Source: an uncultured Pseudomonadota bacterium (lineage in GTDB: Bacteria; Babelota; Babeliae; Babelales; JACPOV01). From it: a stretch of DNA of 58,055 nt. A program made the translations under genes and the position numbers. Positions 3,034-46,383 of the stretch are shown in pieces. The notes beneath the pieces were generated by a model. It saw only the letters and a program-made list of their open reading frames with translations, made no database searches and had not been told where the DNA came from. The number at the start of each line of letters is the position of its first letter. Position 1 is the first letter of the stretch. The stretch is taken from assembly GCA_964620245.1 (NCBI GenBank), contig CAZUJC010000004.1, positions 1 to 58,055 on the forward strand, in the 5' to 3' direction.

Positions 3034-3057
3034 ATGCACCCCCGCTAAAACATACTG

Positions 3058-4666
3058 AAAAAAATAAAGAAGTAGTTATTGTAGATCTATTTTTAATAAA
3101 TTCAAACTAAAATAATCATACGATTCTGTTTATTAATAAAAGCATTTTAATTTCGTATCGCGATTCCATAATTTTCAATCACAATCGTTTTCATGCTTTT
3201 GCTTTTTTTCGAGGCCTTGATCGCTCTTGTCTTCCAATTTCCGTTTTAGATCTGGCAATTTTCGAAAATAGTTTTTATATTCTTCATCCGGTTGCCAATG
3301 AGCGGCAATCGATGCGGCGATATCTTTGACAAATGGAGGATTTGCACACGTCAATTGCCTTGCAAGAGCGTTCTGGAACAATATTTTTTGCATAAATGGT
3401 TTTATTGTCGACACAAAGACGTTATTGTTGTTTTTGTCATCACACAGTGCCCTAAGCAACACTTTGCCATCGCCATTGCGTACCAATAAATCGAGCATAT
3501 CATAATAGATTTTATTGAATTCTTTATGAGTAAGATTTTCTGAATGAAACAAACTAAGCGCTATTACATTTGCAAAAAACTCTTGCGCTTTATTTAATGA
3601 ACGCAATTTTTCGTCTTGTGCAATTCTGTATGAAAAGTGCACTATATTTTTAGGCAGAAACGGTTTTTTTAAATGTGGGTACAAACGCATTGCTTCGCAG
3701 AGTGTCTGCACAATGTTCACCGTTAACATTTCATATCGCTTCCATTCATTAAAACGACCAATAAGAGCCTCCCCTTCTTTTTCTTTAAAAGCAATGAGCG
3801 ATGCATATTCTTTACCCAAACTACCAATACCCAGCTTATCCAATTGATCACATTGAGAAATATCACGAACTGTGTCACGCATGTTTGACAGAAACGCTTC
3901 TTCCTCCTTCACTCTTACCAAAAGGTCTTCTATTTCTTTTTTTTGCTGCGAGTCGATAGCAAAAACAGAAGGGTGCTCGATCATTATTTGTAAAATATGG
4001 TGTTTATAGTTGCGCAATGCATAGTCAACTGGAGCAAAGCCAACAGTGTTATTGTATGGAAATGGTGCAAGGATAGGATTTACGCTCCGTGCAAGCCTAA
4101 ATTGGTTGCCAGGCATTAGATCTTCCAATCTACATATTTTTTGATCAGAAGAGCGCAGAATATTAAAACAAACTAAAAACAAACGATTATCTTTTATATT
4201 TCCTTCTATTTGCTCATCGATCAACAAACTCTTAAAATCTTCCCACCTGCCATCGCGTGCAGCATCAAAAAGAGAATAATGTCTTGATAACTTTTTAAGT
4301 TCATCAATGGTATCGACCGGAGTTAGAACTAAACAATGATCTTTGTTCTTACTCACACAAAATCTTAATGCCAAAGCAGGATTGAATCCATTATCTACCA
4401 TAATCAACATTGAATTTTCCAAGCCTTGAAAGCTCAATATCTGTCGATTATCTATCAAATCAGCAAATTCTTCGTTTCGCTGTCTGAATGATTTATTTGG
4501 CTGTTCCATGCCAAAAGAAAAAACATGCAGAAAAAAAATAAAAACGGTAGCAATTCGCTGTACGTAAAAATAACTATTCATGAGCCCCACCAAAAAAATT
4601 GTCAAAAAAATAAAGAGGAGCTTAGTGTAAATTTATTTTAAATAAATTCAAATTAAAAATAACATG
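3058..4666. repeat. duplicated ~60-bp upstream element (3058-3118 and 4604-4666) of the two tandem paralogs
   Basis: aaaaaaataaaga...tgta.at.tatttt.aataaattcaaa.taaaa is present in both intergenic regions. Confidence 0.7.
3175..4581 (-). CDS. secreted ankyrin-like hypothetical protein (paralog of 1627-3033)
   Basis: Shares SLGKE.A..IA.KEKEG..L..RFNEWK, LCDD.NN and ANPPF with its neighbour; signal peptide ending FG|MEQ. Confidence 0.75.
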   Translation of the reverse strand: MNSYFYVQRIATVFIFFLHVFSFGMEQPNKSFRQRNEEFADLIDNRQILSFQGLENSMLIMVDNGFNPALALRFCVSKNKDHCLVLTPVDTIDELKKLSRHYSLFDAARDGRWEDFKSLLIDEQIEGNIKDNRLFLVCFNILRSSDQKICRLEDLMPGNQFRLARSVNPILAPFPYNNTVGFAPVDYALRNYKHHILQIMIEHPSVFAIDSQQKKEIEDLLVRVKEEEAFLSNMRDTVRDISQCDQLDKLGIGSLGKEYASLIAFKEKEGEALIGRFNEWKRYEMLTVNIVQTLCEAMRLYPHLKKPFLPKNIVHFSYRIAQDEKLRSLNKAQEFFANVIALSLFHSENLTHKEFNKIYYDMLDLLVRNGDGKVLLRALCDDKNNNNVFVSTIKPFMQKILFQNALARQLTCANPPFVKDIAASIAAHWQPDEEYKNYFRKLPDLKRKLEDKSDQGLEKKQKHENDCD

Positions 4667-12360: not shown

Positions 12361-13245
12361 ATGAGAAAAATAATATTTTTATTAACGTTAATGATGAGTT
12401 TAGCACAATATAAAAATGCTAATGCAATGGAAAATGAGCAAGAAAACAAGACAAATAATGTAAACTTGCCTTCATTATTACTCTGCAGCGAAACTCTTGA
12501 GGGTTCACCATTTAAGCCTAACCAAGGCCATCAATCACCGGGAAAAACAAAAATAGAAAATCCTGTAACCAGATCCACGAAGGCCAAAGCTCGCTTGTTT
12601 GAACCAGACAACGAAGTAAATGCTATCTTTCCTGGCGGAAAATTTAATGACGAACTTCAACACAAAAAAAGAAAGCGTCTCTACACTTTTGCTGAAAAAA
12701 TTGAGCGAAATGAACAAACCGTACATCAAATTCTAAAAGATCTTGCAGAAAATGCGGAGTATGAAACTGCTATAAGCGTCCTCGCTACTATTGAAAACAA
12801 AAAACGAAATGATAAATTTATTAATGAAATCAAAAAATTTATCGGTGGAAGTGACACAAAAAATGGAACAGCAGGCAATAAAATTAAACAAGTGCTCAAT
12901 AAAGAAGAATATAAAGACCTCGATGTAAATAAAATAATCCTTCATGTTTGTAATTCTAAAACGCAAACTGCATCTAACGAAAGCCTTCTTAATATTGCGG
13001 TACATCTAAAAGCAAAAAATCTATTTCAATATTTGGTTCAAGAGCGCGATGCTGATATTTCACCAAGCACTATAGTTCTTGCAGAGCAAAATCCCGGGAA
13101 TCATATTCTTCGAATTCTCTATGAAAAAGGGCTAACATCAGTTGCCCCGGCACATCCCAACTCCGTCACAAAAAAATGGAGCTCTGATAAATCAAGAAAG
13201 CGCGCTGAGTCAATTCCATTATTTACGCTCGTTGATCGAAGATAG
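12361..13245 (+). CDS. secreted hypothetical protein with NLS-like and ankyrin-like segments
   Basis: Signal peptide NANA|MEN; HKKRKR; SLLNIAVHL...YLVQERDADI. Confidence 0.75.
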   Translation: MRKIIFLLTLMMSLAQYKNANAMENEQENKTNNVNLPSLLLCSETLEGSPFKPNQGHQSPGKTKIENPVTRSTKAKARLFEPDNEVNAIFPGGKFNDELQHKKRKRLYTFAEKIERNEQTVHQILKDLAENAEYETAISVLATIENKKRNDKFINEIKKFIGGSDTKNGTAGNKIKQVLNKEEYKDLDVNKIILHVCNSKTQTASNESLLNIAVHLKAKNLFQYLVQERDADISPSTIVLAEQNPGNHILRILYEKGLTSVAPAHPNSVTKKWSSDKSRKRAESIPLFTLVDRR

Positions 13246-13383: not shown

Positions 13384-14004
13384 TTATTGAGCTTCTAATT
13401 CATCAAAAGTTTTATCAAGAAGCGCATAGTTTTCCCAACCTTGGTAATCAAAATGCCACCATTCTGTTGGTAAACCAATAAAACCATTTTTTTTCATAAT
13501 TTCTTCTAATTTATCACGATTTGATTTCACATTTTCTGAAATATTCATATAATCGCGATGTGCTTTTTCTATAAAATCATCAAACGGCGTTGGCATTTCC
13601 AATTCTTTGCCATCTTTCAAGCAAATAAGCGTACAATCTACTGCGCAACCACGGTTGTGTCTTGATCCCTTTTTTGGATCGGCAACATAACGTTCATCTG
13701 GTACCAGTTGCCAAAACTTTACCTGCACACTCAATGGGCGATAGCCATCAAAAACTTTCAATCCAAGTCCTTCTTCGTTTAGCTCTTCTTGAACTTTACA
13801 AAGAGCCTGAGCCGCTTCTTTGACTAAATATGCTTTTGCTGCAGGATATACAACTTTATGAGTAAAATTGTCTTCAGTCGCATATTTAATATCAAGAACA
13901 ACATTCGGAATTTTCTTTTCTAAATCAACTAATTTTTGATTTTGCATAGCATATAGAGAAACCGAAAATATTGAAAGCACGTATATTAATTTAACTCTTT
14001 TCAT
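13384..14004 (-). CDS. ddpX: D-alanyl-D-alanine dipeptidase (M15D, VanX/DdpX family), exported
   Basis: DGYRP, SRHNRGCAVD, EWWHF; signal peptide SLYA|MQ. Confidence 0.9.
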   Translation of the reverse strand: MKRVKLIYVLSIFSVSLYAMQNQKLVDLEKKIPNVVLDIKYATEDNFTHKVVYPAAKAYLVKEAAQALCKVQEELNEEGLGLKVFDGYRPLSVQVKFWQLVPDERYVADPKKGSRHNRGCAVDCTLICLKDGKELEMPTPFDDFIEKAHRDYMNISENVKSNRDKLEEIMKKNGFIGLPTEWWHFDYQGWENYALLDKTFDELEAQ

Positions 14005-14147
14005 AAACACCCTTTCTCTCTAATTTTATTTTTTCGTTACATGATATCACGTAAATTATTTTTTTCAAAGTTGACACTCCTTGTTTTTCTCACCGAGCTA
14101 TCCTAAACTTGAACAAAATGAGCGATATTAAAAAAAGGACGTCACTA

Positions 14148-25340: not shown

Positions 25341-26774
25341 ATGATGGGAATTACACGATTTTTATTGTATATACTCTGTACCTTTTTTTTGTATGCAACA
25401 AACGCAACAACGGTCAATCATCTTGCCAGTGCACTTGAAAACCAAATAGAAAACCCTGAAACGCTTCATGTTGTTCCAGCCGACATTCAACCAACAAAAC
25501 TAGTAACTCACGAAAAAGAGTGGACAATTCTCACGTATATGGCAGCCGACAACGATCTTGCACCCTATGCTCGCAAAAACTTAAAACAACAAGCAGATGT
25601 AGGATCAAACAATCGCATCAACATAGTTACACAACTTGATACACGAATCGGGCCACATAACAAAATAACCAAACGTTATTATATTGAAAAAGACAAATTA
25701 ATCGTTAAAAATCTCAACGATCCTGCGACGCAACGAATGGACAGTGGTTCTCCGGAAACACTCATCGATTTTTGTGGGTGGGCGATTAAGCATTTCCCCG
25801 CTCGTTATTATATGCTTGTACTCTGGAATCACGGCACAGGCATTATTGATATTGGCAGACCGCGAAGCATTAATCCAGTGCAGCTTTTCTTTTTTAATCC
25901 CGAAACACATTTGATTGAACTCGACAGAACCATTCCTTTTCTTGATTTTGTCCAAGCTATTCAAGACAACGATCCGCGCGCTATTTGTTTTGACGACACA
26001 ACCGGACACTATATTTCAAATCAAGGCCTTGATCGTGCTCTGCGCGAAATTACGCAACGATTTTTAGGAGGGAAAAAATTAACCATTGTTGCGTTTGATG
26101 CATGCTTGATGTCGATGGTAGAAATTGCAAATATCGTAAAAGATTACGCAGAAATTATGGTCAGCTCTCAAGAAGTCGAGCTCGGGCCTGGTTACGATTA
26201 TCGCCGAGCATTAACACCTGTTGCAGAGCGTTTGCTTAAACCGGCCGAATTTGCTCGCTCACTCGTTAGCTCTTTTGAGCAAACATATTTCAATATTACA
26301 AACGACTTCACCCAGTCAGCAATTGATCTAGAATATATGGGTGCACTAGAAAAAAACATTAATGCGATTGGCAATCTTCTTAATGAATCACTCAGCTTGC
26401 AATACGCAACTACAATTCGAGACATTATCAAATCGTGCAGGCACAAAATGCTCTGCACTCATTTTGATGAGCCAGCCTACCTTGACCTTCATCATCTTTA
26501 TAGCAATATTCTTTCAAATCTAGTGCACTTTAAATTTAATGATGCCAACAAGGGAAACATGATTGTTATGAACCTACGAGAGCATTTACAACTAGGCCTC
26601 AAATTGATTGAAAAAATGGTTATTGCGAATGCGACTGGTAAAAATCTGGCTCGCGCAAAAGGTATTTCAATATATTTTCCAGAACGAGCTCTCCACTCTT
26701 CATACCACCGCACAAAATTCTCAACAAGCAACAACTGGTACAATTTTTTGATTACCTACTTATCACTTCCCTGA
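25341..26774 (+). CDS. secreted clostripain-family (C11) cysteine peptidase
   Basis: EWT...YMAADNDL, WNHG, FDACLM, GISIYFP; signal peptide. Confidence 0.9.
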   Translation: MMGITRFLLYILCTFFLYATNATTVNHLASALENQIENPETLHVVPADIQPTKLVTHEKEWTILTYMAADNDLAPYARKNLKQQADVGSNNRINIVTQLDTRIGPHNKITKRYYIEKDKLIVKNLNDPATQRMDSGSPETLIDFCGWAIKHFPARYYMLVLWNHGTGIIDIGRPRSINPVQLFFFNPETHLIELDRTIPFLDFVQAIQDNDPRAICFDDTTGHYISNQGLDRALREITQRFLGGKKLTIVAFDACLMSMVEIANIVKDYAEIMVSSQEVELGPGYDYRRALTPVAERLLKPAEFARSLVSSFEQTYFNITNDFTQSAIDLEYMGALEKNINAIGNLLNESLSLQYATTIRDIIKSCRHKMLCTHFDEPAYLDLHHLYSNILSNLVHFKFNDANKGNMIVMNLREHLQLGLKLIEKMVIANATGKNLARAKGISIYFPERALHSSYHRTKFSTSNNWYNFLITYLSLP

Positions 26775-26801
26775 GAATTTAATAGACCTATTAAAACAAA
26801 T

Positions 26802-26838
26802 AAAAAAAGTGTTGCCCAAATCAAGCAGCACTTTTTTT
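26802..26838 (+). terminator. intrinsic terminator
   Basis: AAAAAAAGTGTTGC/GCAGCACTTTTTTT stem with a U-tract. Confidence 0.75.
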
Positions 26839-26890
26839 GCAATTTTGTTAAACTGCATACCAAGTAACACTTTTTACATAACAGGCAATT

Positions 26891-27478
26891 ATGGATCCTA
26901 AATCGTATAAACAAACACTTCTCAATCAACTTTATGAACCATACAAAAACTGCACAATGTGCCCGCTTGGCACATTGGGACGCAAATCGGTCGTATTTGG
27001 CGAAGGCGACCCAGATGCAAACTTAATGTTTATTGGTGAAGGACCGGGACGGGATGAAGATGAGCAAGGGCGACCTTTTGTTGGAAGGTCCGGACAGCTT
27101 TTGACACGCACATTAGCTGCGCACAATACAAAACGAGAAAATGTTTTTATTTCTAATATTGTTAAATGTCGCCCCCCTGACAACCGAACCCCGACAGAGT
27201 TAGAAAGCACTACCTGCAAAAAACTTTTGCTCGAAAAACAAATTAAAATCATACGGCCTGCCGTTATTTGCACTCTTGGCTCAACCGCACTTACTCATTT
27301 AACTGGAAAACAGTTTAAAATTACGAGCACCAGAGGTAAAATACTCGAACAAGATGGAGTTATGGTCATTCCCACCTATCATCCAGCATACATCTTGAGA
27401 AACCCATCAGAAATTTCAACATTTTCCAATGATATTAAATTTGCTCTTGAACAAGCCCAAACTAGACAAATAAAATAA
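26891..27478 (+). CDS. uracil-DNA glycosylase, family 4 (Fe-S)
   Basis: CTMC, GEGPG, GRPFVG, NIVKCRPP, YHPAY. Confidence 0.93.
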   Translation: MDPKSYKQTLLNQLYEPYKNCTMCPLGTLGRKSVVFGEGDPDANLMFIGEGPGRDEDEQGRPFVGRSGQLLTRTLAAHNTKRENVFISNIVKCRPPDNRTPTELESTTCKKLLLEKQIKIIRPAVICTLGSTALTHLTGKQFKITSTRGKILEQDGVMVIPTYHPAYILRNPSEISTFSNDIKFALEQAQTRQIK

Positions 27479-27491
27479 TTCACATAGAAAT

Positions 27492-27810
27492 TGTGGATAA
27501 CCTGTGGATAACCTGTGGATAACCTGTGGATAACTTTGTCTAGATTTTAATAAAAACTGACTAGGTCAAAGATTAAGCGCCCCCGAGATATCAATACAAT
27601 GATCTATTAATCACTTTGGCAAGAAAAAAATATTCTTAAAAAAAGATGTCCACAATCTGTCCACAAGTTATCCACAGGTTATCCACAATTGCATGGCGCT
27701 CTAAAAGAATTAACTACTCATTGTTTTCTGATATTTTATGCCAAGTTATCCACAATTTTGAGCTCACCTATTACTACTAGTTTAAAGAAAGAGAAATATA
27801 ATAAGTATGA
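27492..27810. other. probable chromosomal replication origin (oriC)
   Basis: TGTGGATAA at 27492, 27503, 27514 and 27525; inverted boxes at 27646 and 27657 (degenerate) and 27668, 27679, 27746 (TTATCCACA); DnaA-trio-like CTATTACTACTA at 27768-27779; AT-rich tract after. Confidence 0.88.
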
Positions 27811-27914
27811 TAATAGGCATTCTTGCTTTGCGATGGCACATCTTCTTTTATTTATTTAATTTTTTGCTACACTTATATAAAGTCTTATTTAATTTTTCGA
27901 TCATAAGGAACCCT

Positions 27915-28985
27915 GTGAAACTTGCACAAGTAATCGAGGAACTCATAGAAGAGAGAGGCCTTGATCGTTCTCTTTTAAGTTCTATTATTTGCGAAGGACT
28001 GATGGCTGCATATACCAAGCGGTTCCCTGAGCTTACATTTGACATTTCATACAACAAAAAAAGTGATGAAATTGAAATAAAAGTACGCAAGACGGTTGTT
28101 GCGTCTGTCAGCGACGAAGACATAGAAATTTCTCTGAGAAAAGCTCGCACCCTTGATCCTAGTGTTGAAGTGGGCGGCGAGGTATGGGTTCCATTTGAAG
28201 GAAAGATTGGACGCATAGAAATTTTGCGCGCAAAACAAGTAATAGCAACAAAAATCCGTGGCGTTGAAGCTGCCGCTATTTATAATCAATACAAAGACAG
28301 AAAAGATACCATCGTCCATGGTACCATTCATAAATGCGAACGCAATGGAATGTCGCTTAAGATTGATGAAACTTTAGCTTTTCTGCCACATTCGCTCTCT
28401 TTACCCACAGATAAATGTGTTGTTGGTTATTCTATTCGTGCACTACTCAAAGAAGTTTTGACAGAACCACGCAACGATTATCAGCTTATTCTTGATCGCG
28501 CATCGGTTGATTTTGTACGAATATTATTTGAGCTAGAAATTCCCGAAATTTTTGAAAAAATTGTTGAAATCAAAAAAATTGTGCGCATTCCTGGGTATAA
28601 AACCAAGGTTGCCGTTGTTTCGCACGAAAAAAATATTGACCCTGTTGGAACTTGCGTAGGAGTTGGTGGGGTGCGTATTAAGCCAATTTTAAAAGAGCTG
28701 GGTGGTGAGAAAATAGACGTGATCCCTTGGCGCGAATCAGTGGAAGATATGATTGCAGATGCACTTAAGCCCGCTATCATTAGCAGGGTTGAGCTTGTGG
28801 GCATAGCCGCAGCGCAAGTTTGGCTTGATGAAGATCAGCGATCGTTAGCAATAGGTAAAATGGGACAAAATATAGCACTTGCGTCTCAGTTGGTTGGTTT
28901 GAATATTAATCTTGTACAGAGTGAAAAAACCACACAACAACGTGATGCTGAGCTAGACGAACAGATTGATGAAGCAGTTGAATAA
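27915..28985 (+). CDS. nusA: transcription termination factor NusA
   Basis: GRIEILRAKQ, ELEIPEI, DPVGTCVG, GEKID, AIGKMGQN; GTG start at 27915 behind AAGGA. Confidence 0.94.
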   Translation: MKLAQVIEELIEERGLDRSLLSSIICEGLMAAYTKRFPELTFDISYNKKSDEIEIKVRKTVVASVSDEDIEISLRKARTLDPSVEVGGEVWVPFEGKIGRIEILRAKQVIATKIRGVEAAAIYNQYKDRKDTIVHGTIHKCERNGMSLKIDETLAFLPHSLSLPTDKCVVGYSIRALLKEVLTEPRNDYQLILDRASVDFVRILFELEIPEIFEKIVEIKKIVRIPGYKTKVAVVSHEKNIDPVGTCVGVGGVRIKPILKELGGEKIDVIPWRESVEDMIADALKPAIISRVELVGIAAAQVWLDEDQRSLAIGKMGQNIALASQLVGLNINLVQSEKTTQQRDAELDEQIDEAVE

Positions 28986-32600: not shown

Positions 32601-35600
32601 TTATCCGCCAAATGAAATATCGCCGCTGCTTGCTTGCTCGGTTCGATCCTGTATGCTTTGATCGGCAGGATTATTGGGGTCGATTTGTTGTTGATTGCCA
32701 CCACTTCCACTATATCCCCCATCTGGGTTTGATATATTTCCGCCGCCAACTGGTTGTGTTGTGGTTGTATCAGGCTGAGTTTGGTCTACTGCTTGCTCTT
32801 GTTTGACCGCTTGCTGGTAAAAAGTGGTTGATGAGTTAATTGCATTTAAGAGTGATGTGGTTAATGATCCGGTATTCTTTTGATATACATTGAGTGTAGT
32901 TTGAGCACTGTAGCGGATTGACAGTGGGGTGTTGTTGTTTCTCTTATATTCATATCCTGTTACCAAGCTTCGCATGGTGGAGATTGTTGCATCATGTGGT
33001 GCACCAAGAATTCCATCGTTTGTCTTCATTAAGAAATAATCGTAAAGCTGATTTCCAGCGCTATCTTTTATTGGATTCCCTTGGTTATCATGTAGCTCAG
33101 CAGTGGGTGATGTTGTTTTATAGATAAAGTGACCGTCAATTACATCTTGTGTGCTTGTTGCTTGTAATGAGATGGTGCCGAAACTAAATGGTCCGATAAG
33201 GGTTGAGGCGTAAGAATTTCTGAGTGCATTGATAGTTTTGGTTGTGCCATCTGGAAGTTGTCCGTGAGTTTGAACGAATGATTCAAGAACATTGGGGCAC
33301 ATAGCAATCTGTTTTGCATTCTGATCGTATGCTCTTTGCGAAATTAAGCTTACCAGTGAAGGAGATGGTGCGCCTGGAGAAAGTGCAATCAGAGGAGAAA
33401 TGCCGATTTGATTTATTATTGTTGATCCTTGTGTTCCCACCGAGGCTTGCCCAAGTGCTACATAATCAACTATTGGTTTCTTTTGTGAATCAGTTAATCC
33501 TGTTGCGCTTGTTGCATAAATATATTGTCCTTTAAGAATTGATGGTTTGTTGATTGCTTGTAGATTAAATGATCCAACTGTTGGGTTGGTCAATTGTTGC
33601 ATTTTTTTGCGCGCATCAATTTCACGCTGTTTTTCTGTAGGAATGCCAAGCGCACCAGTTGGCCGCAATTTTTGATTGGCTTGTGGTTGAACTTGTGGGC
33701 TAATTATTTCATATTCAATAGATGCGCCGGCTGAAATCATACCAACAGTTCGTTGCTTTGTTGGTGAAATGGTAAATGATTGTGCAGCAGGAGGGGTTGT
33801 TCCTTCTTGCCATATTTGCACAGTCAATGTGCTATCGTTCAGTTGGAGACGCATGTGGTACCACTGACCAATTGCAAATTCGGGGCCAGTTGGTTGTGCA
33901 AACCAGCCTTTACCTTCATGTTCATAGAGATTAAGAGTTGTTGGTTGATCTTTGGCGTCTTTTTTATACACAAGCATTTTTGCTAAATGACTTACATCAA
34001 GTGGCGCGGAGCCAGATTTTCTGATGGCATCAAGATCGATACTATCACCACCAAAATAAACACCTATTGAAAAACTATTTAAGGTATAGAGCGCGCGCCA
34101 TTTTATTTCTACAATTGGTGTATCCTGAGCAAGTGGCACTGTTTCTTTTTGATTGAACCAAAATTTACGTGGTGTTGATGAAGTAATAGATTGCCCATCG
34201 GAAGCAATTGCTAATGCTGGCGAAACAGCAATTTCCTGACTAAATGCTTTTCTGCCATTATTATACAACGGGAACCCTTGAGATGGGTTCAGGTTTAAAA
34301 CGCCCGTGTTGAAACCATATATTGAACCAACATCTGCGCTCATTAGGCCAAACGTTGGGTCGGGAGTAATTTGTGGGGTGAGTGATTGCCCTAAATAGTA
34401 TGACATTTGACTTTCCATATTACTAAAATAAGTTTGAACAAAATCTTGATAAAATCCTAATTCACGTTCTTGATTGGTAATCTGAGCTTGATATTTTTTG
34501 CTCAGTTCATCTGCCCATGCATCCTTTGCATTCGCAGAAATAATTTTATTATTTGCAACGTATGTTTGATAGTCGCTGACAAATTGTTTTTGTTCCGCTT
34601 TTTTCTCAACCGCTCTTTCATCTGCTTGATACCCACCAGCAATCTGAAAAAGCTGTGGACCAACAGTCATTGCAAGCACTGGAAGTGCCAAGCCGTCTGT
34701 TGCAACAACGGCTGCAACTAGTAAGCCGGTAGTAACGGTCGCTTCTATGAGACGTCGATGATTTTGAACCCAGTCGGACGCGGTTTGCATAGCTTGTTGA
34801 CCACCTTGCCAACCAAATGCCGAGAATGCGCTTGATAACCCATTAAACACTGCTTTGAATGTATCAATAGTCAAATCAGTAATGATACTTACTATATAGC
34901 CTGCGAACTTAACAAGTGCTTTAATTTGATCAACAATTTGTTGCACAACAAAAGTACCAACAGAAATAATAGAACTTACAACATCATAAGCTATGGTTTT
35001 GAGTCCATTGAGAGCATCTTGACCCAACCCTTGCCAGTCACCAGATTTAACTGCAACTACTGTATCGGCAACAATTGTTGTTGCATAATTTACCGCATCA
35101 GTAGTTAAGCGGACAATGCCTCCTTCATAGGCAACAACAATATGTTGCATGTCAGCATAAAAATCTATAACACGATCTGCTACCGCATCAAGAGCGCCTT
35201 CTATATCTTTTCCAAGTTTGTCATCTATTTTTGAGAATACGGTACCTACTAATGATGCAGCACCTGAGGCGACATCTTTGGCTGCTTGTGCTGTATCATT
35301 AATAACATTTTGTGCATCCTGAATGGTATTGGTAATATCATTAGAAACGTCTTGCTGGAGTTGTTTTGATTTTTGAACAAAATCTTTTGCTTTGTTTGGA
35401 TCAATTGCGCCAACAAAAGCTCCTGCGATTCCATAGCCCAGTGCTTCAGCTTCATCGGCGACTGTCTTGCCAAAATCTTGCATTCCTTGCCAGATATCTT
35501 GGCCTGTTTGTTTAATATCATTCCATAAACCACTGATCCATGATCCAAAATCTTGAACTGTTACCAATTCATTGTTTGTGGAATTTGTGGGTGAATTCAT

Positions 35601-36875
35601 TACGATCTGTAAAGCGGCAGAAGGATTTGCTGCTTCTTGTGCAGCGGTATCCTTAAAATTTGTTAGCAAGCGATCTAAATCTTCAAGATAGACATAATCA
35701 TCGGTGGTATAAAGAAGAAATGCAGGAGAAGGAAGATTGGCGAAATTGGTTAGTGCCTTCATTGTTTGATCAAGATGCGTTGCATCAAATAAATAATAGG
35801 TCTGAGCTTGAATATTTTTCAACATTGCCAAACATTGTAGTTTTTCTTGGACCAATGGTTGTTTTACATAATTAGGATCAATTGGTAGTTGCTTTTGCAG
35901 CCCTTGTTGCGTGAGATCGCCTAAACTTGATGAATTAGCGATTGAAATAAGTTGGTAAAAACCAGTTTTTTGATAAATAGTTGCTTGATCATTAATTTTA
36001 ACCAAATCGAATTGTTTTGTTGTTGGATTTATTATCGTCGCCCAATCTTTTGTTTGTTTTAGTAAGCGATTGCGCACTTCATCTGTTAAAACTAAATGTA
36101 AGCGATGAAATTCTGCAGCATTTCTTAGTTGTGAAAAGTCGGGGTGATAATAAGCAACTTCAATATTAGGAATGAATCGAAAAATTGATTGATCTGTTTC
36201 GTAAATTGATTCCAAAATTGATGCATCTTGTAAAAACGAGCGCGTAATCGTATATTTGCAAAAATCTTGCCAAAAAGATGAATTTATTATCATTGTAGGT
36301 GTAATAGAGATTGCTTTCCAAAATGGTGTATTAACAACATCTTTCCAAGAAGAAACAACAATACTTCCTTGTACTTCTTGCCAATCTGGTGTGAGAGTTC
36401 CTGAGCCAATGATGACAACGAGATTTGCCCAAGATCCAGCTTTTTTTACAAGTGCATCAACAAACTCAATCCATGTTGATTTTTCAAGTAATGTAGTTAC
36501 ATCAATATTTTGTTGGTGTCCATAGGCTGCTAGTAATGCCGCGCATTCTAACTTAGTTACATATTCAAGATAAAAATAGAAATTTTTAATGTAGCGCAAC
36601 AAATCTGCATCAACATTTAATCCGGCGCTACCAAACAATGCTGTAACCGCATTTTCATTGATGGAAGTTGTTGGATATGGGTTTGGTGACGGAGGTGTGC
36701 TATTTGGAAATACTGGATTAAAAAGAGCCTGCGCAACAATTTTTACGTCGGAATATTTTCCTTGTAAGTTATCAACAGCTTGTGATGGTGTAATTTGTGG
36801 CGATGGTTGTTGTGCCAGTGTTGTACATGACACAAGTAAAATCTTCAATACTAAAATATGTTTCAATATTTTCAT
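32601..36875 (-). CDS. giant secreted hypothetical protein (amphipathic/hydrophobic helices, coiled coil, beta-sandwich, 2 C-terminal repeats)
   Basis: 1424-aa ORF; signal peptide CTTLA|Q; SD GGAG; third gene of a 3-gene operon. Confidence 0.85.
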   Translation of the reverse strand: MKILKHILVLKILLVSCTTLAQQPSPQITPSQAVDNLQGKYSDVKIVAQALFNPVFPNSTPPSPNPYPTTSINENAVTALFGSAGLNVDADLLRYIKNFYFYLEYVTKLECAALLAAYGHQQNIDVTTLLEKSTWIEFVDALVKKAGSWANLVVIIGSGTLTPDWQEVQGSIVVSSWKDVVNTPFWKAISITPTMIINSSFWQDFCKYTITRSFLQDASILESIYETDQSIFRFIPNIEVAYYHPDFSQLRNAAEFHRLHLVLTDEVRNRLLKQTKDWATIINPTTKQFDLVKINDQATIYQKTGFYQLISIANSSSLGDLTQQGLQKQLPIDPNYVKQPLVQEKLQCLAMLKNIQAQTYYLFDATHLDQTMKALTNFANLPSPAFLLYTTDDYVYLEDLDRLLTNFKDTAAQEAANPSAALQIVMNSPTNSTNNELVTVQDFGSWISGLWNDIKQTGQDIWQGMQDFGKTVADEAEALGYGIAGAFVGAIDPNKAKDFVQKSKQLQQDVSNDITNTIQDAQNVINDTAQAAKDVASGAASLVGTVFSKIDDKLGKDIEGALDAVADRVIDFYADMQHIVVAYEGGIVRLTTDAVNYATTIVADTVVAVKSGDWQGLGQDALNGLKTIAYDVVSSIISVGTFVVQQIVDQIKALVKFAGYIVSIITDLTIDTFKAVFNGLSSAFSAFGWQGGQQAMQTASDWVQNHRRLIEATVTTGLLVAAVVATDGLALPVLAMTVGPQLFQIAGGYQADERAVEKKAEQKQFVSDYQTYVANNKIISANAKDAWADELSKKYQAQITNQERELGFYQDFVQTYFSNMESQMSYYLGQSLTPQITPDPTFGLMSADVGSIYGFNTGVLNLNPSQGFPLYNNGRKAFSQEIAVSPALAIASDGQSITSSTPRKFWFNQKETVPLAQDTPIVEIKWRALYTLNSFSIGVYFGGDSIDLDAIRKSGSAPLDVSHLAKMLVYKKDAKDQPTTLNLYEHEGKGWFAQPTGPEFAIGQWYHMRLQLNDSTLTVQIWQEGTTPPAAQSFTISPTKQRTVGMISAGASIEYEIISPQVQPQANQKLRPTGALGIPTEKQREIDARKKMQQLTNPTVGSFNLQAINKPSILKGQYIYATSATGLTDSQKKPIVDYVALGQASVGTQGSTIINQIGISPLIALSPGAPSPSLVSLISQRAYDQNAKQIAMCPNVLESFVQTHGQLPDGTTKTINALRNSYASTLIGPFSFGTISLQATSTQDVIDGHFIYKTTSPTAELHDNQGNPIKDSAGNQLYDYFLMKTNDGILGAPHDATISTMRSLVTGYEYKRNNNTPLSIRYSAQTTLNVYQKNTGSLTTSLLNAINSSTTFYQQAVKQEQAVDQTQPDTTTTQPVGGGNISNPDGGYSGSGGNQQQIDPNNPADQSIQDRTEQASSGDISFGG

Positions 36876-36899
36876 TACTGCTCCACCTATTTGTGCTCA

Positions 36900-38732
36900 T
36901 TATTTCATGAGCGCAGCTACCTGTTGAGAAATTTCAGTAAGTTGATCTTGTGAATAAACAAGATCAGTTGGCTGTTTAATCTTAAATTCTGCTTGGCATC
37001 CCGAAGCCATAAAGCCAATGCCACCAAATATAAAAAGATAATTATCTAACTGACTAATTGTTTTACTAAATAGCGGTGTTTGTGTTGCGTCAGCATTAAT
37101 TTTTGCAAAAAAACATGCAGCAATTGTTGGTGATGTAGTAATTTTAAAGATATAAGTAATTGGATTGTTCACCAGAAAATCTACATCTTGTTTATCTAAT
37201 TGATATAAATGAGTCGATCCTTGTGTTGCAATTTGTTCAAGAGGAGAAATGATGCGTTCCTTAGTTTGTCCCTGTTTTTTGTTAATTATTTGTTGCGCAA
37301 AGCAGAGATCAACTTTGCGAGATTTTGGATCGCCTTTTGTTATTTCAACACCGTAAAGCCCAAAGAGACGGTATTGCCAGATTCTTTCCGGGTCACCTGA
37401 AATCCAATGTCCTCGATTGCAAATGATACCTACAAAAAATGGATATGTTGCATTTACCAGCGTACATTCAACTTCAATGTCGTAGGTAGAGCTTCCGGTT
37501 GCATATTCAGTAAAAATTGAATTGGCAGCAGGATCATCGGTAAAAATTGAAGCAGTTTTGTCGGTGCGTTTCTGCCAGATAGGTTTTGGAAATAGTGCAA
37601 GACCATTTTGCCAGAAACTGTTGCGATTAAAATCGAATTCCCAATCGCCTTGAGCTACTTGATAAATATTGTACCATTGCAACCCGCTTGGTGGTGTGAG
37701 CATAACGCCATTTTCAAAATAAAGATCATATTGAATAGGTGATACGAGGCTTTTGATAATTGGCGCATCTAAATTGATCGATCGGTTCAGATAAATCACT
37801 TCTTCTTGAAGTTGTTGATTAGTTTTTGCATACAAATCAGTTACTTGTTTTTGCGATTTACCAAATGCGTTTGTGATTGAACCCATTGTTGCTGTTTGAT
37901 CATTGGCTATCTGTTTTTGGAACAGTTTCCAATCATCAGTAATTGCGTTTTGTTGTTTAGTTGCTTCATCAAACGCTTGCTTGTCTGTATCATCTTCCCA
38001 TTGAATTGCGAGCGAACCACCAGCCATAATAATGGCTTGGATAGCGATATTAGCGAGCATTTCAACAAACTGTACTTTAGGCGGTGAGAATTTTTTTGCT
38101 CGTTTTTTTACTCGTTCTTGTAAATCAGCCGTATTCCAAAAATCAATAATTGTTGGCATTATCATTTTTTTGCGCAACACGAAAAAAAGCAATAGTTGTT
38201 GATAATCAAAAAGAATAAATTCTCGTTCAATATCAATATATTTCAAAATTAGCTTGGCTAATTGATTTGATAATTGTTGCGTAGGAGTATTGTTTTGTGT
38301 TGTTTCAAACCAACGGGTTGCATTAGAATAGAGTTCCCCGATTTTTTTTGCTACCTGTTGCCAGAGTGAGCTATTTGAATCTGTGTATTTAATAAAATTT
38401 TTAAAATGATTGATCTGATTTTCTAACAAAAAATCTTTAAAAAAAAGTTCTTGAGGAACAAGTTGGTTGTGTTCCTGTAACTTTTTAATTTCAGAACGGA
38501 GTTGTGTATGTTGCGATTGTAATTTATTGAGTACCAATTGTGCTGCTTGTGACAATTCTTCCTGAGTTGCTTCTTTTAATGCATCAAAAAGTTTGGTTAC
38601 ATCTTCAAAAATGTTCTGCTCTAAATGAACTCCTGTTTTGCCATAAAGGAGATCTGGATTTACACCCTCCTTTTGTGCAACAAGAGTTGATGCGGCAATA
38701 AAAAAACAAATAATTAATTTTTTCATGTGCAT
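36900..38732 (-). CDS. secreted hypothetical protein sharing a module with 32601-36875
   Basis: Signal peptide TLVA|Q; hydrophobic helix, coiled coil and beta-rich C-terminal domain. Confidence 0.85.
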   Translation of the reverse strand: MHMKKLIICFFIAASTLVAQKEGVNPDLLYGKTGVHLEQNIFEDVTKLFDALKEATQEELSQAAQLVLNKLQSQHTQLRSEIKKLQEHNQLVPQELFFKDFLLENQINHFKNFIKYTDSNSSLWQQVAKKIGELYSNATRWFETTQNNTPTQQLSNQLAKLILKYIDIEREFILFDYQQLLLFFVLRKKMIMPTIIDFWNTADLQERVKKRAKKFSPPKVQFVEMLANIAIQAIIMAGGSLAIQWEDDTDKQAFDEATKQQNAITDDWKLFQKQIANDQTATMGSITNAFGKSQKQVTDLYAKTNQQLQEEVIYLNRSINLDAPIIKSLVSPIQYDLYFENGVMLTPPSGLQWYNIYQVAQGDWEFDFNRNSFWQNGLALFPKPIWQKRTDKTASIFTDDPAANSIFTEYATGSSTYDIEVECTLVNATYPFFVGIICNRGHWISGDPERIWQYRLFGLYGVEITKGDPKSRKVDLCFAQQIINKKQGQTKERIISPLEQIATQGSTHLYQLDKQDVDFLVNNPITYIFKITTSPTIAACFFAKINADATQTPLFSKTISQLDNYLFIFGGIGFMASGCQAEFKIKQPTDLVYSQDQLTEISQQVAALMK

Positions 38733-38736
38733 CTTC

Positions 38737-40239
38737 CTATGGTGGTCCTTGTGAAAGATCTGGCGGAGGTGGCGGTGGTCCCTGTTGTGATTGCTGTTGT
38801 TGCGAAATAAGTTTGCGCAAACTACTTAAATAGTCTTGGCATTCTTGGCAGATTTGTGCAGATTGCGTTGAAGACATGATTCCTGCTTTAACAGCGCTAT
38901 TGATAATAATGCATCGCATGCATGGATCTAATATGAGCTCATCTTTAAAGATTGGATCAAAGAGGGCAGTAAAATCGCCAAGACATGCGCGCAACATCAA
39001 CATAACCCCTTCATATGAATTGAGCCATGTTGGTTGTTGCAAGATTTGCTGTGTGTACATGTTTTGCAATGTTGGAATATTTACATACAAACGTGCGGCA
39101 GCGGCAACATTTGTTACTCGATTACCCTGCGCGTCAACAAAGTATGCTGGAGGCAATTGACTGATAACAATGCCATTTTTATCCACAATTGGCTTTGGAT
39201 TTTGTGCATCTTGTACAACTTTTGCTGGCCAGCCAACTTTTTGAATATTTGGACCAAAGCTCAAAGCTGTTTTTGGGATAACTTTTAAGCTTCTGATTGT
39301 TTCATCATCATAAAAAAAGAGAGGAGGATTAATAAGTTGAATTTGACGCAAGGTTGTTGCGCGCTGACTAAGTGGTGTATTTTGATCAATAGTTGGCGTT
39401 GCTGCGGCCATAACTTTTTGAATTTCTATTGCATGCCGTACAAAAATAGAACCGTAGGTCGGATCCGGTTGCTCTAAAGAGCTTGTATACATTTTAAAAA
39501 ATTGAAGATAGTTACCAAAAATAGTTAAATAGGCAGATCGCATATCGCGAATACCTTGTTGCACGAGGGGATCACTTACAACATTGAGTTCTTGATTTTC
39601 AATTAATAAATTAAGGTCTGCGCCATAATCATGGTTAAGAAGAAGGGTGTTGCCAGTATATGTTGCTAAATGTTTTGGTAAAGCAGGCATACGTGAAGTG
39701 ATTGCTTGATTGGATTGAGCTTCAATAATATTTAAAAAATGATTAATAATATGTGTTTTGCGATTGAGAGCTTGAAGTGGTTCATTTGCTAAATAGTCTT
39801 TCAATTCTCGAGTGACATTCATATTAAATGTGGTATAAATTTTCATTAAATATGAATAGAGCTCATGCAAAATTACTAAATGTATGCGACTAAAATAAAC
39901 AAGAAAGTAGTTATTATTATCGATGCTGGAAAGAAAATTATTAAGTGAAGCTGCAAATGCACTATTTGTTGGAAACAATGTTTGCCCACTCGGGTGATTT
40001 TTTATTGTTGCAAGACGCAAGTGACTCAAATTGAATTTACGCGCACATGCCATAGTACCTAAGGGGGTATTGTACTTATTTTGCGAAGTTATTTGTAGTG
40101 GATTGCCAGATTTATCTTGCCACGTGTGAAAAAGTTGGCACGAATTAAGTGTTGCTGTTGGTACGCAGGTATCACTGCTTACTGGCAGATCAATAAAAAG
40201 AGCTACGAATATAAGGAAAAAGCACCGACAATAATGCAT
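38737..40239 (-). CDS. secreted hypothetical protein with a C-terminal poly-Gln/poly-Pro tail
   Basis: Signal peptide; SD AAGGA; 4 bp from the next gene. Confidence 0.82.
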   Translation of the reverse strand: MHYCRCFFLIFVALFIDLPVSSDTCVPTATLNSCQLFHTWQDKSGNPLQITSQNKYNTPLGTMACARKFNLSHLRLATIKNHPSGQTLFPTNSAFAASLNNFLSSIDNNNYFLVYFSRIHLVILHELYSYLMKIYTTFNMNVTRELKDYLANEPLQALNRKTHIINHFLNIIEAQSNQAITSRMPALPKHLATYTGNTLLLNHDYGADLNLLIENQELNVVSDPLVQQGIRDMRSAYLTIFGNYLQFFKMYTSSLEQPDPTYGSIFVRHAIEIQKVMAAATPTIDQNTPLSQRATTLRQIQLINPPLFFYDDETIRSLKVIPKTALSFGPNIQKVGWPAKVVQDAQNPKPIVDKNGIVISQLPPAYFVDAQGNRVTNVAAAARLYVNIPTLQNMYTQQILQQPTWLNSYEGVMLMLRACLGDFTALFDPIFKDELILDPCMRCIIINSAVKAGIMSSTQSAQICQECQDYLSSLRKLISQQQQSQQGPPPPPPDLSQGPP

Positions 40240-40418
40240 ATTTCTTCCTTGGGTTAACTGATTGGTTGAATTTTAGTGAACTGACAATACTGATAGCAAG
40301 GTTTTGTTAATTTTTTTAGAAAATGAGCTTTTCTCCCTGACAAAAAAGAATTATATTAAATGCCAACATGCAAAAAGATGTTCTTCATAAATACACTTTA
40401 ATAAATCAAGGTATACCT

Positions 40419-41627
40419 ATGCGCATAAAAATTTTATCAACTACCGCATTGCTGGTAGTTGCAGGTTTGATCGGTTGGAGCGGATACCATTATTTTTTTG
40501 ATCTAAATGCCCCGGAGTGTTTTTTGACAGGAATAGAATCTGGTCACTATTATGCTGGAGATGTTTATTGTATTTTGGCTGGTAACGACGGATACAAAGT
40601 ATCAGACATTTCTGTTTGGCTTGATGGAACACCATTGCTGACAAAGTATAAAATAAACAGTCGTCGCTTTGAGCATCCATTTACGGTACCAACTAAAACA
40701 TTGCCAAATGGTAAGCATGTATTAAAAGTTGAAGTTGCCAATGGTACCTACGCAAAAAAGAAAATCACTCAGGAGCGATCATTCTTTGTGGATAACGATC
40801 CATTACAGGTAGCATTTGTGCGTCCTGAATCGGAATTAAAAGTATTTCAGGGAAGAACATTGCATGTTCAATTTCAGGTCAACAAAGAAATTGATCGTGC
40901 AGTGGTGAATGCACTGTCAAATAGTTTTGAATGTTTTGCCGAATCAAAAAATTCTCGTATTTATGAATGTTTTATTCCTATATCATGCGAAGAAGTAGCG
41001 AGTGAATATGTTGCGTCGGTCGAAGTTTTTGACAAAACAGGGCATTCAACTCGGCTTGATGGTAAATTTCAAGTAATTATGTTTCCATTTAAAAAACAAC
41101 AATTGCATGTTAGTGCTGAAAAAATAAAAATCGAAAAAGAGATGGGAATTAGTAACGATCAGCTTGAGTCGGAACTCGAAGCAATGGCTAAACAATCTCC
41201 TAAAGAAAAACTTTGGCAAGGAACTTTTTATCCACCGATAGAAATTCAAACCGTTTCGACCGACTTTGGTACAATTCGTACTACGCAAGAAAAAGGGCGT
41301 TATGTTCACAAGGCTGTTGATGTTCTTAATACGCCACGAAGTGTTGTGTGGGCGCCGCAAGATGGCATTGTTGTATTAAAAAATAGATATGCATACAGTG
41401 GAAACACTGTTGTGATCGATCACGGCTGCGGTATTTTATCACTTTTTTATCATTTAGATGATTTTGCCGATATTACGCCTGGGAAAAAAATTAAACGAGG
41501 AATGCCGCTCGGAACATTGGGAAAAACCGGTTATGCAAGCGGGTACCATTTACATTGGGAAATGAGAATTAGTAATATTCCTGTAGATCCATTGCAATGG
41601 ATAAAGCCAAATTTTTTACTTAATTAA
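40419..41627 (+). CDS. M23 family metallopeptidase with N-terminal membrane anchor
   Basis: HKAVD, GNTVVIDHG, YHLHWE; start at ATG 40419. Confidence 0.9.
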   Translation: MRIKILSTTALLVVAGLIGWSGYHYFFDLNAPECFLTGIESGHYYAGDVYCILAGNDGYKVSDISVWLDGTPLLTKYKINSRRFEHPFTVPTKTLPNGKHVLKVEVANGTYAKKKITQERSFFVDNDPLQVAFVRPESELKVFQGRTLHVQFQVNKEIDRAVVNALSNSFECFAESKNSRIYECFIPISCEEVASEYVASVEVFDKTGHSTRLDGKFQVIMFPFKKQQLHVSAEKIKIEKEMGISNDQLESELEAMAKQSPKEKLWQGTFYPPIEIQTVSTDFGTIRTTQEKGRYVHKAVDVLNTPRSVVWAPQDGIVVLKNRYAYSGNTVVIDHGCGILSLFYHLDDFADITPGKKIKRGMPLGTLGKTGYASGYHLHWEMRISNIPVDPLQWIKPNFLLN

Positions 41628-41640
41628 ATAAGGCAGAAAA

Positions 41641-42216
41641 ATGCAGGTGTTTCTTGGTGTGAATAAATTGTGCACAGTTGTTGCTTCCTATTCGCCGATT
41701 GTGCGGTATTGTTTAACTATTCTTGTGCTTTCAGTTGTTGTTTTTTCTTGGTTCAAAGGACCATATCAATGGTTGAACAACTATAAGCAACAGATTGATA
41801 CTGATAGAATACATATACAAAAGATCATTCAATCAGGTGATCAAGATGAGCATTGTTTGCAAGAATTACATGCATCATGTTCATCACTTAAGCGAGAAAT
41901 GAAAGAATTCAATTATCTTGCCAACAAACAATCGGTCGATTGTTTGTTGGCAATTTTAAATTGTGCACAAGTTAACGGGCTAACAGTTGAATCATGCTCA
42001 AAACAGTATGAAAAAGAAAAAGTTTGGTGTCAAAAAAAGGGTTATTCATACATGTTGAAAGGAAATTTTGCCCAGTTTTTTAATTTTTTTAATACGCTTA
42101 ACGAGCAAAAAAAATTAGTTCGTTGCAAAGAATTTTCGCTTGAAAAAACGGGAGATCTCTTAAGAGCGCATGTAGTTTTTGAAACAATGATAATTAAAGA
42201 TGAAGCATATGCTTAA
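41641..42216 (+). CDS. pilO: PilO-like type IV pilus assembly protein
   Basis: TM helix, coiled coil and LKGNFAQFFNFFNTL motif; overlaps a PilP-like gene. Confidence 0.65.
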   Translation: MQVFLGVNKLCTVVASYSPIVRYCLTILVLSVVVFSWFKGPYQWLNNYKQQIDTDRIHIQKIIQSGDQDEHCLQELHASCSSLKREMKEFNYLANKQSVDCLLAILNCAQVNGLTVESCSKQYEKEKVWCQKKGYSYMLKGNFAQFFNFFNTLNEQKKLVRCKEFSLEKTGDLLRAHVVFETMIIKDEAYA

Positions 42217-45314: not shown

Positions 45315-45863
45315 TTAATTTAATGAAGCCATCAGTTTAAAATGGAGTACAGGAATATTTTTTTCTGAATCGAGCGTCTGATTAAGCGAATCAATTAGTG
45401 CTAGTTTTAATCTATTATCGGTTTGCAAATTATTAATAAAATTTGTAAGCGATTGCAGGTGGTAGCTATTACCCTCGAGTTGTAGCTGTTGATTATAGTG
45501 ATACGAAAAACGAGTTAATACAACATCAGCCGGAATAGTTTGCGAAAGTAATTTTAAAAGAGCGAGTGAAGCAGAGCATGAAGATTCGTATGAATGCAGA
45601 ACGGTAAGTTGTTGCTGTAATTTTTTTTCTTGTTGTTCAAGTGAACTAATTGATTGATGTACGGTAGTAACCATCGATTTTTTGGCAAGCAACTGTTTTT
45701 TATTTTGTAGTGAAGACATGATTTGTATTGATTGATATATATTGGTTGAAATAAGAAGAGCAACTGTTAAAAAGAATGCACAACATGAAAAAAAGTACCA
45801 CGCATTAAGCGATTCACATTGTTGTGCGCGCATTAGTAATAAAAAATTAGTAACCTTCTTCAT
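45315..45863 (-). CDS. pilN: PilN-like type IV pilus assembly protein
   Basis: N-terminal NFL motif, TM helix, coiled coil, LSQTIPADVVLT...LEG...FINNL. Confidence 0.75.
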   Translation of the reverse strand: MKKVTNFLLLMRAQQCESLNAWYFFSCCAFFLTVALLISTNIYQSIQIMSSLQNKKQLLAKKSMVTTVHQSISSLEQQEKKLQQQLTVLHSYESSCSASLALLKLLSQTIPADVVLTRFSYHYNQQLQLEGNSYHLQSLTNFINNLQTDNRLKLALIDSLNQTLDSEKNIPVLHFKLMASLN

Positions 45864-46383
45864 AGCTTTGTTTTCCTATGGCAAAAAGTCCGATAGCTTC
45901 AAGTAAAAGTGATTGTGAAATATGATTTTTATCTTCAATCAATTCATCGAGCCGCATTTGTTGTTGATGAATAGTACTGTAAAACATCTCTGCACTATTT
46001 AGTGCACCTTTGTGGGTGGTGAGCGCGATACATTTCAGTTTATGTGCAATGGCAAAAAGTGAAAAATGGAAAAGAATGTGCGGTGCACAATGAAAATGGC
46101 GACCATTTTCATTGTTTTTTGCTAATGAATCATCACACGAAATAACTATGTAACTTTCGTGCTGATTGTAGGAGTGAATAAATTGCCAAATAATAGAATT
46201 TATTTTTTTATGATTAAAAATGCGACCGTTAACTACTTCATAGCTAGTAAGTGGTATCGACTCAATAGCAACACACTTTAATTGTTGATGTTCAGATTGT
46301 TCGATAATGCTGCATTTTATAGAATTGTCGGAAATCCGTATGCCAACAAACGAAGGCGATTTTTTGCTCCATAACTTGAACAT
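45847..46383 (-). CDS. short PilM-like protein (178 aa)
   Basis: FVGIRISDNSIK resembles the PilM phosphate-1 region; C-terminal AIGLF; overlaps pilN. Confidence 0.6.
   Translation of the reverse strand: MFKLWSKKSPSFVGIRISDNSIKCSIIEQSEHQQLKCVAIESIPLTSYEVVNGRIFNHKKINSIIWQFIHSYNQHESYIVISCDDSLAKNNENGRHFHCAPHILFHFSLFAIAHKLKCIALTTHKGALNSAEMFYSTIHQQQMRLDELIEDKNHISQSLLLEAIGLFAIGKQSYEEGY

Follow-up and report, generated by a model that had tools for sequence, protein, structure and literature searches.

Described membrane-inserting proteins and the A-B-C unit

In the translocators of type III secretion systems (SctE/SctB: IpaB/IpaC, YopB/YopD, SseC), the larger partner bears a two-helix hydrophobic hairpin, the smaller one a single helix, and a coiled coil lies beside each. 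Bi- and tripartite alpha-pore-forming toxins, or alpha-PFTs, of the ClyA family (YaxAB, XaxAB, AhlABC, Nhe and Hbl) are encoded by adjacent component genes and, according to excerpts of one account (PMC6602965), display long helices presenting a hydrophobic hairpin, with a heterodimer as likely building block and the hydrophobic part hidden until use. Adenovirus protein VI is described in part of another (PMC4113798) as rupturing the uptake vesicle by an N-terminal amphipathic helix and as being trimmed by a protease; since the uncut precursor is lytic too, the trigger may be something other than cleavage. A three-gene unit comparable with these systems occupies positions 32601-40239 of contig CAZUJC010000004.1, whose 58,055 nucleotides are called the window here. 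It belongs to a genome of the Ca. Babeliales, within Ca. Babelota, a group of widespread obligate parasites of protists.

The genes were named A, B and C in the order of transcription. All three are minus-strand open reading frames (ORFs), encoding 500 aa (A, 38737-40239), 610 aa (B, 36900-38732) and 1424 aa (C, 32601-36875), and the gaps of 4 and 24 bp bear out the tight linkage noticed in the first-pass annotation of this DNA. Three new protein families make up this conserved unit, for which the open literature searched gave no description. The order A-B-C on one strand was found in 38 out of 38 loci holding all three genes, with most gaps below 25 bp (38 loci were taken from 45 other positive genomes, plus the window). 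Signal peptides, called by visual judgement and a crude rule, were seen on all three proteins as first proposed, and in 30 of 38 homologues of A, 22 of 40 of B and 32 of 41 of C. The richness in Gln and Thr noted earlier held for Gln in each protein (96th to 99th percentile of 501 genome ORFs) but for Thr only in C (96th percentile, against 79th for A and 83rd for B).

Pfam, NCBIfam and PHROGs gave nothing above cut-off for A, B or C, only weak tape-measure and unknown-family rows being returned. The viral library added nothing; in the ESM Atlas the matches of B stayed below 0.9 (leads only) and A had none. Sequence matches in the PDB (designed bundles, tape measure, apolipophorin and alpha-synuclein, E>0.1) were discarded as compositional only.

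Like the ClyA-family alpha-PFTs, the unit has adjacent component genes, and the long helices, hydrophobic hairpin, heterodimer and hidden membrane part of these toxins have their likeness in the predicted B-C pair. In contrast, no profile match was obtained at E<=1 (Bacillus_HBL and other Pfam profiles, 32 homologue segments of C included), B and C carry ConA-like heads, and the predicted mask is a separate N-domain with a VxxQ site, not a beta-tongue. Furthermore, not all components are related: A has no kinship with B or C and lacks hydrophobic character. The membership in the ClyA/Nhe/YaxAB family that the first-pass annotation had considered was not retained. Among the fold matches listed for B and C there was no entry for ClyA, YaxAB, Nhe or IpaB, an absence that does not exclude these folds since the lectin domain filled the lists; comparison with the five-helix tail bundle and its alpha3-alpha4 hairpin was limited likewise, and also by the low confidence of the helical middle of C.

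The resemblance to type III translocators lies in the hairpin of the large partner C and the single, weak helix of the small partner B. Their signal peptides and lectin heads set B and C apart, no SseC/SctE match was found at E<=1, and the source genome (94% complete) gave no match to FHIPEP, the type III export gate, a search that rang in four of 14 control genomes; type III translocators were accordingly set aside as well. The secretion search covered the type III gate and secretins, and two secretins and two Omp85 genes were found elsewhere in the genome. With adenovirus protein VI the likeness is one of analogy only, the B-C helix sitting in a large bacterial two-chain stalk. By such analogies, the unit would resemble in its action either a two-component alpha-pore former or an entry protein that is membrane-lytic and matured by a protease. 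That B and C are a secreted pair breaching the host vacuole membrane after cleavage, with A as accessory, is a reading whose chances of being right or wrong we hold to be about equal.

For Ca. Babelota, the secretion routes named in excerpts of three reports are Sec and type II alone, and no way across the vacuole membrane is given there (PMC4378268, PMC4776705, PMC6561590). Chromulinavorax is described, in part of its report, as entering via food vacuoles and lying in the cytoplasm by 3 h (PMC6561590), Babela as growing in one vacuole (PMC4378268, in part). The unit is a specific candidate for vacuole crossing, for which cleavage sites and an interface are predicted and whose presence and absence split clearly by family. 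Should it open membranes, it would represent a multi-component membrane-inserting protein of a structural class that has no sequence kinship with either ClyA toxins or type III translocators. No paper on it was found in the open literature (subscription journals were outside this scope and supplements may list the genes as orthologues); a search for 'Dependentiae' with 'pore-forming' returned one unrelated preprint.

Paralogous stalks and lectin-fold heads

All features of B and C are on the minus strand. The signal peptide of B is followed by a helical N-domain (about residues 20-217; 38082-38675), a predicted pro-domain that is absent from many homologues and thus dispensable. Next come PKVQ (218-221; 38070-38081), with predicted cleavage after Gln221, a K/R-poor and slightly acidic hydrophobic helix (222-243; 38004-38069), a long helix (244-319; 37776-38003) and a ConA-like L-lectin-fold domain (335-590; 36963-37730). 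The monomer model (pLDDT 85, pTM 0.53) displayed low confidence at 220-251, hence over the hydrophobic helix, then a single helix at 250-319 and the beta domain.

In C, the signal peptide precedes a confidently modelled helical N-domain of unassigned fold (22-420; 35616-36812), also a predicted pro-domain. It is followed by VTVQ (438-441; 35553-35564), with predicted cleavage after Gln441, and by an amphipathic helical region (442-705; 34761-35552) of net charge -15, whose hydrophobic moment peaks at 98 degrees and whose pLDDT is below 50. The sequence HRR then precedes a hydrophobic hairpin, H1-TGG-H2 (706-752; 34620-34760), after which come a long helix (753-836; 34368-34619) and the second ConA-like L-lectin-fold domain (837-1061; 33693-34367). 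Two tandem alpha/beta domain copies of about 130 aa each (1097-1227 and 1229-1358; 32802-33587) matched each other with P 99.7% and had no family match; a low-complexity tail closes the protein. The model of C22-1200 (pLDDT 69) showed the confident N-domain, a low-confidence middle (about 420-780), the long helix and the beta domain.

Pairwise BLASTP of B against C was not significant (best E 4.7). Profile-profile comparison aligned B198-595 with C693-1067 over 339 columns (P 90.5%, E 1.3e-6), and deeper alignments gave P 89.2% and E 2.2e-6, against 0.3% for a column-reversed control. Judged by these alignments, B and C are paralogues. The profile alignment paired exactly the segments that had been put forward as homologous beta domains, and the motifs cited with them were present in the translations (VEIKW at C922, ~34112; IEVEC at B419, ~37478). 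The ordered plan proposed as common to both proteins needs two qualifications: the N-domains shared just 36 columns (P 51%) and the hydrophobic helix of B is weak across the family.

Both modelled heads matched ConA-like L-lectin folds, as anticipated in the first-pass annotation (ConA/LamG-like), with the same top matches; their likeness was established through these shared matches. The head of B matched the thrombospondin-1 C-terminal domain (Z 13.8, rmsd 3.4, 179 aligned) and CBM66 (Z 13.6, rmsd 3.0, 157 aligned), that of C the same two domains (Z 13.5, rmsd 3.4, 166 aligned; Z 13.5, rmsd 3.2, 157 aligned). Among ConA-like L-type lectins (thrombospondin C-terminal domain, CBM66, ERGIC-53) Z ranged from 12 to 14 for B and from 11 to 13.5 for C, although identity with the heads was just 7-13%. 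On these models the heads are of ConA-like L-lectin fold and may bind sugars. The catalytic motifs of GH16 (ExDxE or ExDxxE) and PL7 (QIH) are characteristic of enzymes of this kind. Neither was conserved: the GH16-type motif occurred in none of 173 B and two of 65 C sequences, and the PL7-type motif in four and one, respectively. Clostridial neurotoxin heavy chains, in which a helical region is followed by a ConA-like jelly roll, were the top Foldseek rows for B by E-value. Kinship with them was rejected: the TM-score was 0.15 and the rmsd 26-28 A, only the lectin fold was common, and there was neither a protease chain nor sequence similarity.

A complex of B222-604 and C700-1067 was modelled from our own alignments, with A left out. 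It scored 0.73 (runs 0.73, 0.77 and 0.72), the best of three controls reaching 0.00; the score mark was attained by 116 of 157 solved complexes and two of 215 mismatched pairs, counts that are rough since own alignments were used. Runs had at least 37% of contacts in common and partner pLDDT was at least 70. The interface consisted of a parallel coiled coil (B244-297 with C755-813) together with neck and head contacts, in which near-invariant residues met (D336 of B with Y853 of C, and 442-445 of B with E881 of C). Conservation was higher at the interface than elsewhere in the stalk (B 0.48 vs 0.33, C 0.51 vs 0.42), a comparison not independent of the model, which used the same alignments. On this model, B and C are predicted to be a heterodimer joined by a parallel coiled coil, with the heads paired. 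The model supports binding, without showing it; its parallel geometry places the hydrophobic segments together at one end and the heads at the other.

Lectin-fold heads atop a long stalk would also suit a self-anchored adhesin, whose hydrophobic ends would sit in the bacterium's own outer membrane or in vesicles and whose heads would bind host glycans or an organelle (e.g. the mitochondrion), no host membrane being opened. A single copy at a fixed site and the long variable loops tolerated near the membrane end fit such a protein, and vesicles and mitochondrial wrapping are described for one isolate in part of its report (PMC6561590). An anchor, however, needs neither some 260 residues of acidic amphipathic helix nor a masking domain, no conserved lipobox or beta-barrel anchor was seen by eye at the homologue ends, and the most conserved head residues of B lay in the modelled B-C interface, with no evident sugar site. 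An adhesin of this kind appears rather unlikely.

The VxxQ junction and putative membrane-active segments

The linker of the N-domain closes in both families with a V/I/P/A-x-(small or aliphatic)-Q motif, directly before the membrane-active segment. Motif counts used profile anchors that do not use the motif, on 173 B sequences below 90% identity, of which 50 were without N-domain anchor, and on 65 C sequences. VxxQ was present in 106 of 123 anchored B sequences, against a background of 10.6% of windows, and in 48 of 64 C sequences, against 13.2%, the pattern having been defined after the alignments were seen and the kin being not independent. An earlier count with regex anchors (B 50/67, C 17/25) was poorly anchored and is superseded. 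Among the 50 B sequences without N-domain anchor, 12 had the signal peptide joined to the helix in the register of the Gln (signal ends judged by eye) and four kept a short linker only, still ending in VxxQ. The simplest reading of these sequences is that the mature N-terminus matters, whether signal peptidase or a cut specific for Gln generates it. The motif and the signal-peptide ends in the same register point to cleavage of a pro-domain that arms the membrane-inserting end; a protease likely cuts B and C after VxxQ, unmasking hydrophobic and amphipathic helices. The data thus suggest proteolytic arming at this junction, which is a proposal absent from the first-pass annotation.

Sequences after the Gln were hydrophobic in B (above the 95th percentile), nearly free of K and R and net negative in 93 of 106. 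In C they began with a strongly amphipathic helix (at the 95th percentile); a further stretch of net-acidic amphipathic helix, some 260 residues long, led on to the hydrophobic hairpin. On a crude insertion scale, on which soluble controls scored 4.3-5.9 and true anchors -1.0 to 0.2, the helix of B had a median of 4.9, as soluble-protein windows do, which fits conditional rather than constitutive insertion. H1 of C was borderline (median 1.1, range -2.4 to 4.4) and H2 marginal (median 3.2). Of the hydrophobic and amphipathic helices proposed at first, those of C, hairpin included, are consistent with membrane insertion and that of B is weak across the family.

Gene A encodes a protein with a signal-peptide-like start, without family match and, in the window copy, without hydrophobic segment; it did not match the profiles of B and C (E 0.09-0.34). 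Invariant residues were K161, Q175, G196, P305, P403, W405 and G421; near-invariant were C419 (87 of 90 homologues) and H167 (86 of 90). C440 was conserved in 75 of 90, which allows a disulfide with C419; such a disulfide is as likely as a C419-H167 protease pair. The product may be an accessory subunit, with chaperone or processing protease as candidate functions.

If B and C breach or permeabilise the membrane of the host food vacuole, the course of events would be as follows. They would be exported by Sec and cross the outer membrane through a type II system, two secretins being present, or in vesicles, with the helical N-domains masking the membrane-active ends in transit. The chains would then be cut after Gln221 of B and Gln441 of C, where the motif was observed, by A, a periplasmic protease or a host protease. 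In accordance with the model, B and C would pair via stalk and heads, and the heads might attach to a glycan or a protein of the target membrane, a proposal taken from their fold. Finally, the amphipathic helices of C would spread on the bilayer, the hairpin of C and the helix of B would insert, and oligomers would open the membrane. The membrane-active segments are net acidic, so vacuole acidification possibly aids insertion; A would be an obligate partner in the unit. A more specific version makes this an entry machine of a new class, in which a B-C stalk armed by its own protease A ruptures the food vacuole with acid-responsive helices, as non-enveloped viruses do. This version is doubtful, but still deserves some credence; if it is true, presence of the unit in some Babeliales families and not in others would explain cytoplasmic versus vacuolar lineages.

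Several observations weigh against a breach of the vacuole by B and C. The family searches yielded no pore-former or translocator, and the definition of VxxQ after inspection of the alignments tells on the same side. In the C model residues 399-744 are of low confidence, the conservation of the head interface of B is weak (p 0.08), and the modelled pairing may have generic reasons, the coiled coils being paralogous. H1 of C is, by its score, hydrophobic enough for an ordinary anchor in several homologues, and in one family 115-506 residues, mostly acidic, stand between H1 and H2; with such long loops, spontaneous insertion of a hairpin through the bilayer is hard to reconcile. The unit is mostly single-copy at a fixed chromosomal site, unlike many toxins. 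Everything from cleavage and secretion to insertion, the oligomer and the target membrane is inferred.

The same anatomy would serve a free cytolysin used late, for host burst at exit or for the killing of other cells, and not for entry. Rapid host lysis is described for two isolates in part of one report (PMC12172432), but this lysis is not tied to the unit, and the acidic membrane-active segments and strict retention of three genes fit entry at least as well. Late use seems very improbable.

Distribution and genomic surroundings

Single-protein searches of 201 genomes of the phylum found A and B in the same 44 genomes and C in 46. Of 261 genomes, profile searches detected B in 50, in one of them by a weak match at the N-terminus, and A in 48. 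Presence of the unit splits along families: A was found in 14/14, 14/16, 7/9 and 4/5 genomes of four families and in 0/80, the largest family, and 0/35 of another, these zeros meaning that it was not found in the genomes searched. B was also present in a record labelled Chromulinivoraceae (locus L080). A profile scan of 1.84 billion representatives returned 164 matches, 134 of them below 1e-30, and the 150 matches listed of these 164 were apparent members or fragments of one family. Homologues were labelled Ca. Dependentiae or Babeliales by their sources; the names of ten B homologues were 'hypothetical protein' or none, with no cultured species among them.

Among the loci with all three genes, C was cut by a contig end in two, B was split by a stop codon in one (L041, 8940-10739), and A-B lay across a gap of N in one; the apparent A-B fusion in L062 was rejected as such an assembly gap. 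One genome with 7% contamination (G203) had two sets of A and B matches. Large insertions occupied fixed sites and are family-specific: 115-506 aa between H1 and H2 of C (L045-L050, L061-L065), 167-358 aa after the Gln of B (L051-L060, L070) and 518-652 aa near residue 200-250 of A (L051-L060). Promoter and terminator scans of the unit remained at chance level, and seven short contigs, the yield of one sequencing run in which the share was small, had nothing bearing on expression.

This distribution bears on the possibility that an inserted B-C oligomer conducts proteins through the vacuole membrane, as a channel for effectors exported by Sec. Two hydrophobic partners, of which one bears a hairpin and the other a single helix, recall major and minor translocators, signal-peptide proteins are many (291 of 878 ORFs by the crude rule), and the type III gate is lacking. 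Yet about 80% of the phylum's genomes gave no match to A or B in the searches, the unit holds no secreted ATPase or unfoldase, and SseC did not match. Moreover, signal-peptide proteins with Met-Glu/Gln/Asp/Asn after the signal amounted to 19/124 without and 9/112 with the unit (crude rule, 80 kb from each of ten genomes, five with and five without it). The commonest effector-type N-terminus thus occurs also in genomes without the unit, which makes a general effector translocon unlikely and weakens the delivery of Sec-exported effectors proposed in the first-pass annotation; we regard a channel of this type as quite unlikely.

Within the source genome, Met-Glu/Gln/Asp/Asn directly after the signal hydrophobic stretch was displayed by 68 of 291 signal-peptide proteins, against 28 of 546 proteins without signal (crude rule). 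Window proteins with this start are encoded at 1627-4605, 12361-13245, 13384-14010 and 55003-57547. It may be a phylum-wide mark of export or host processing.

A divergent M23 peptidase gene (40368-41627, plus strand) was neighbour to the unit in 37 of 38 loci. With this neighbour, the unit could be an envelope machine for wall or division remodelling, C being anchored in the inner membrane by H1 (and H2) and B and A being periplasmic; H1 is anchor-like in some homologues, and a cytoplasmic position would suit the long loop between H1 and H2. The M23 gene was, however, present in 190 of 201 genomes and the unit in 44, the basic HRR would face the periplasm, neither H2 (median 3.2) nor the B helix (4.9) makes a good anchor, and masking and cleavage would be left unexplained. 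There is only a small chance that such a machine is what the genes encode. As a component of the unit the M23 gene was rejected, its occurrence in so many genomes making it a landmark and not a part.

Further genes near the unit included PilO-, PilN- and weakly PilM-like ones (41641-42216, 45315-46383). Downstream of C (L034-L070), a uvrC-like gene was found in 27 loci and a clpB-like gene in 17 (named from translations); the ClpB-like neighbour, without signal peptide, probably reflects old gene order. At 6 kb from the unit, 25341-26774 encodes a Clostripain-family (C11) protease with a signal-peptide-like start. Cumulative GC skew had its minimum and sign change at about 26000-28000 of the window, as expected near a replication origin. 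At 550-1569, a signal-peptide protein carries a Cys/His-rich, RING-like C-terminal stretch and is likely a ubiquitin-ligase effector.

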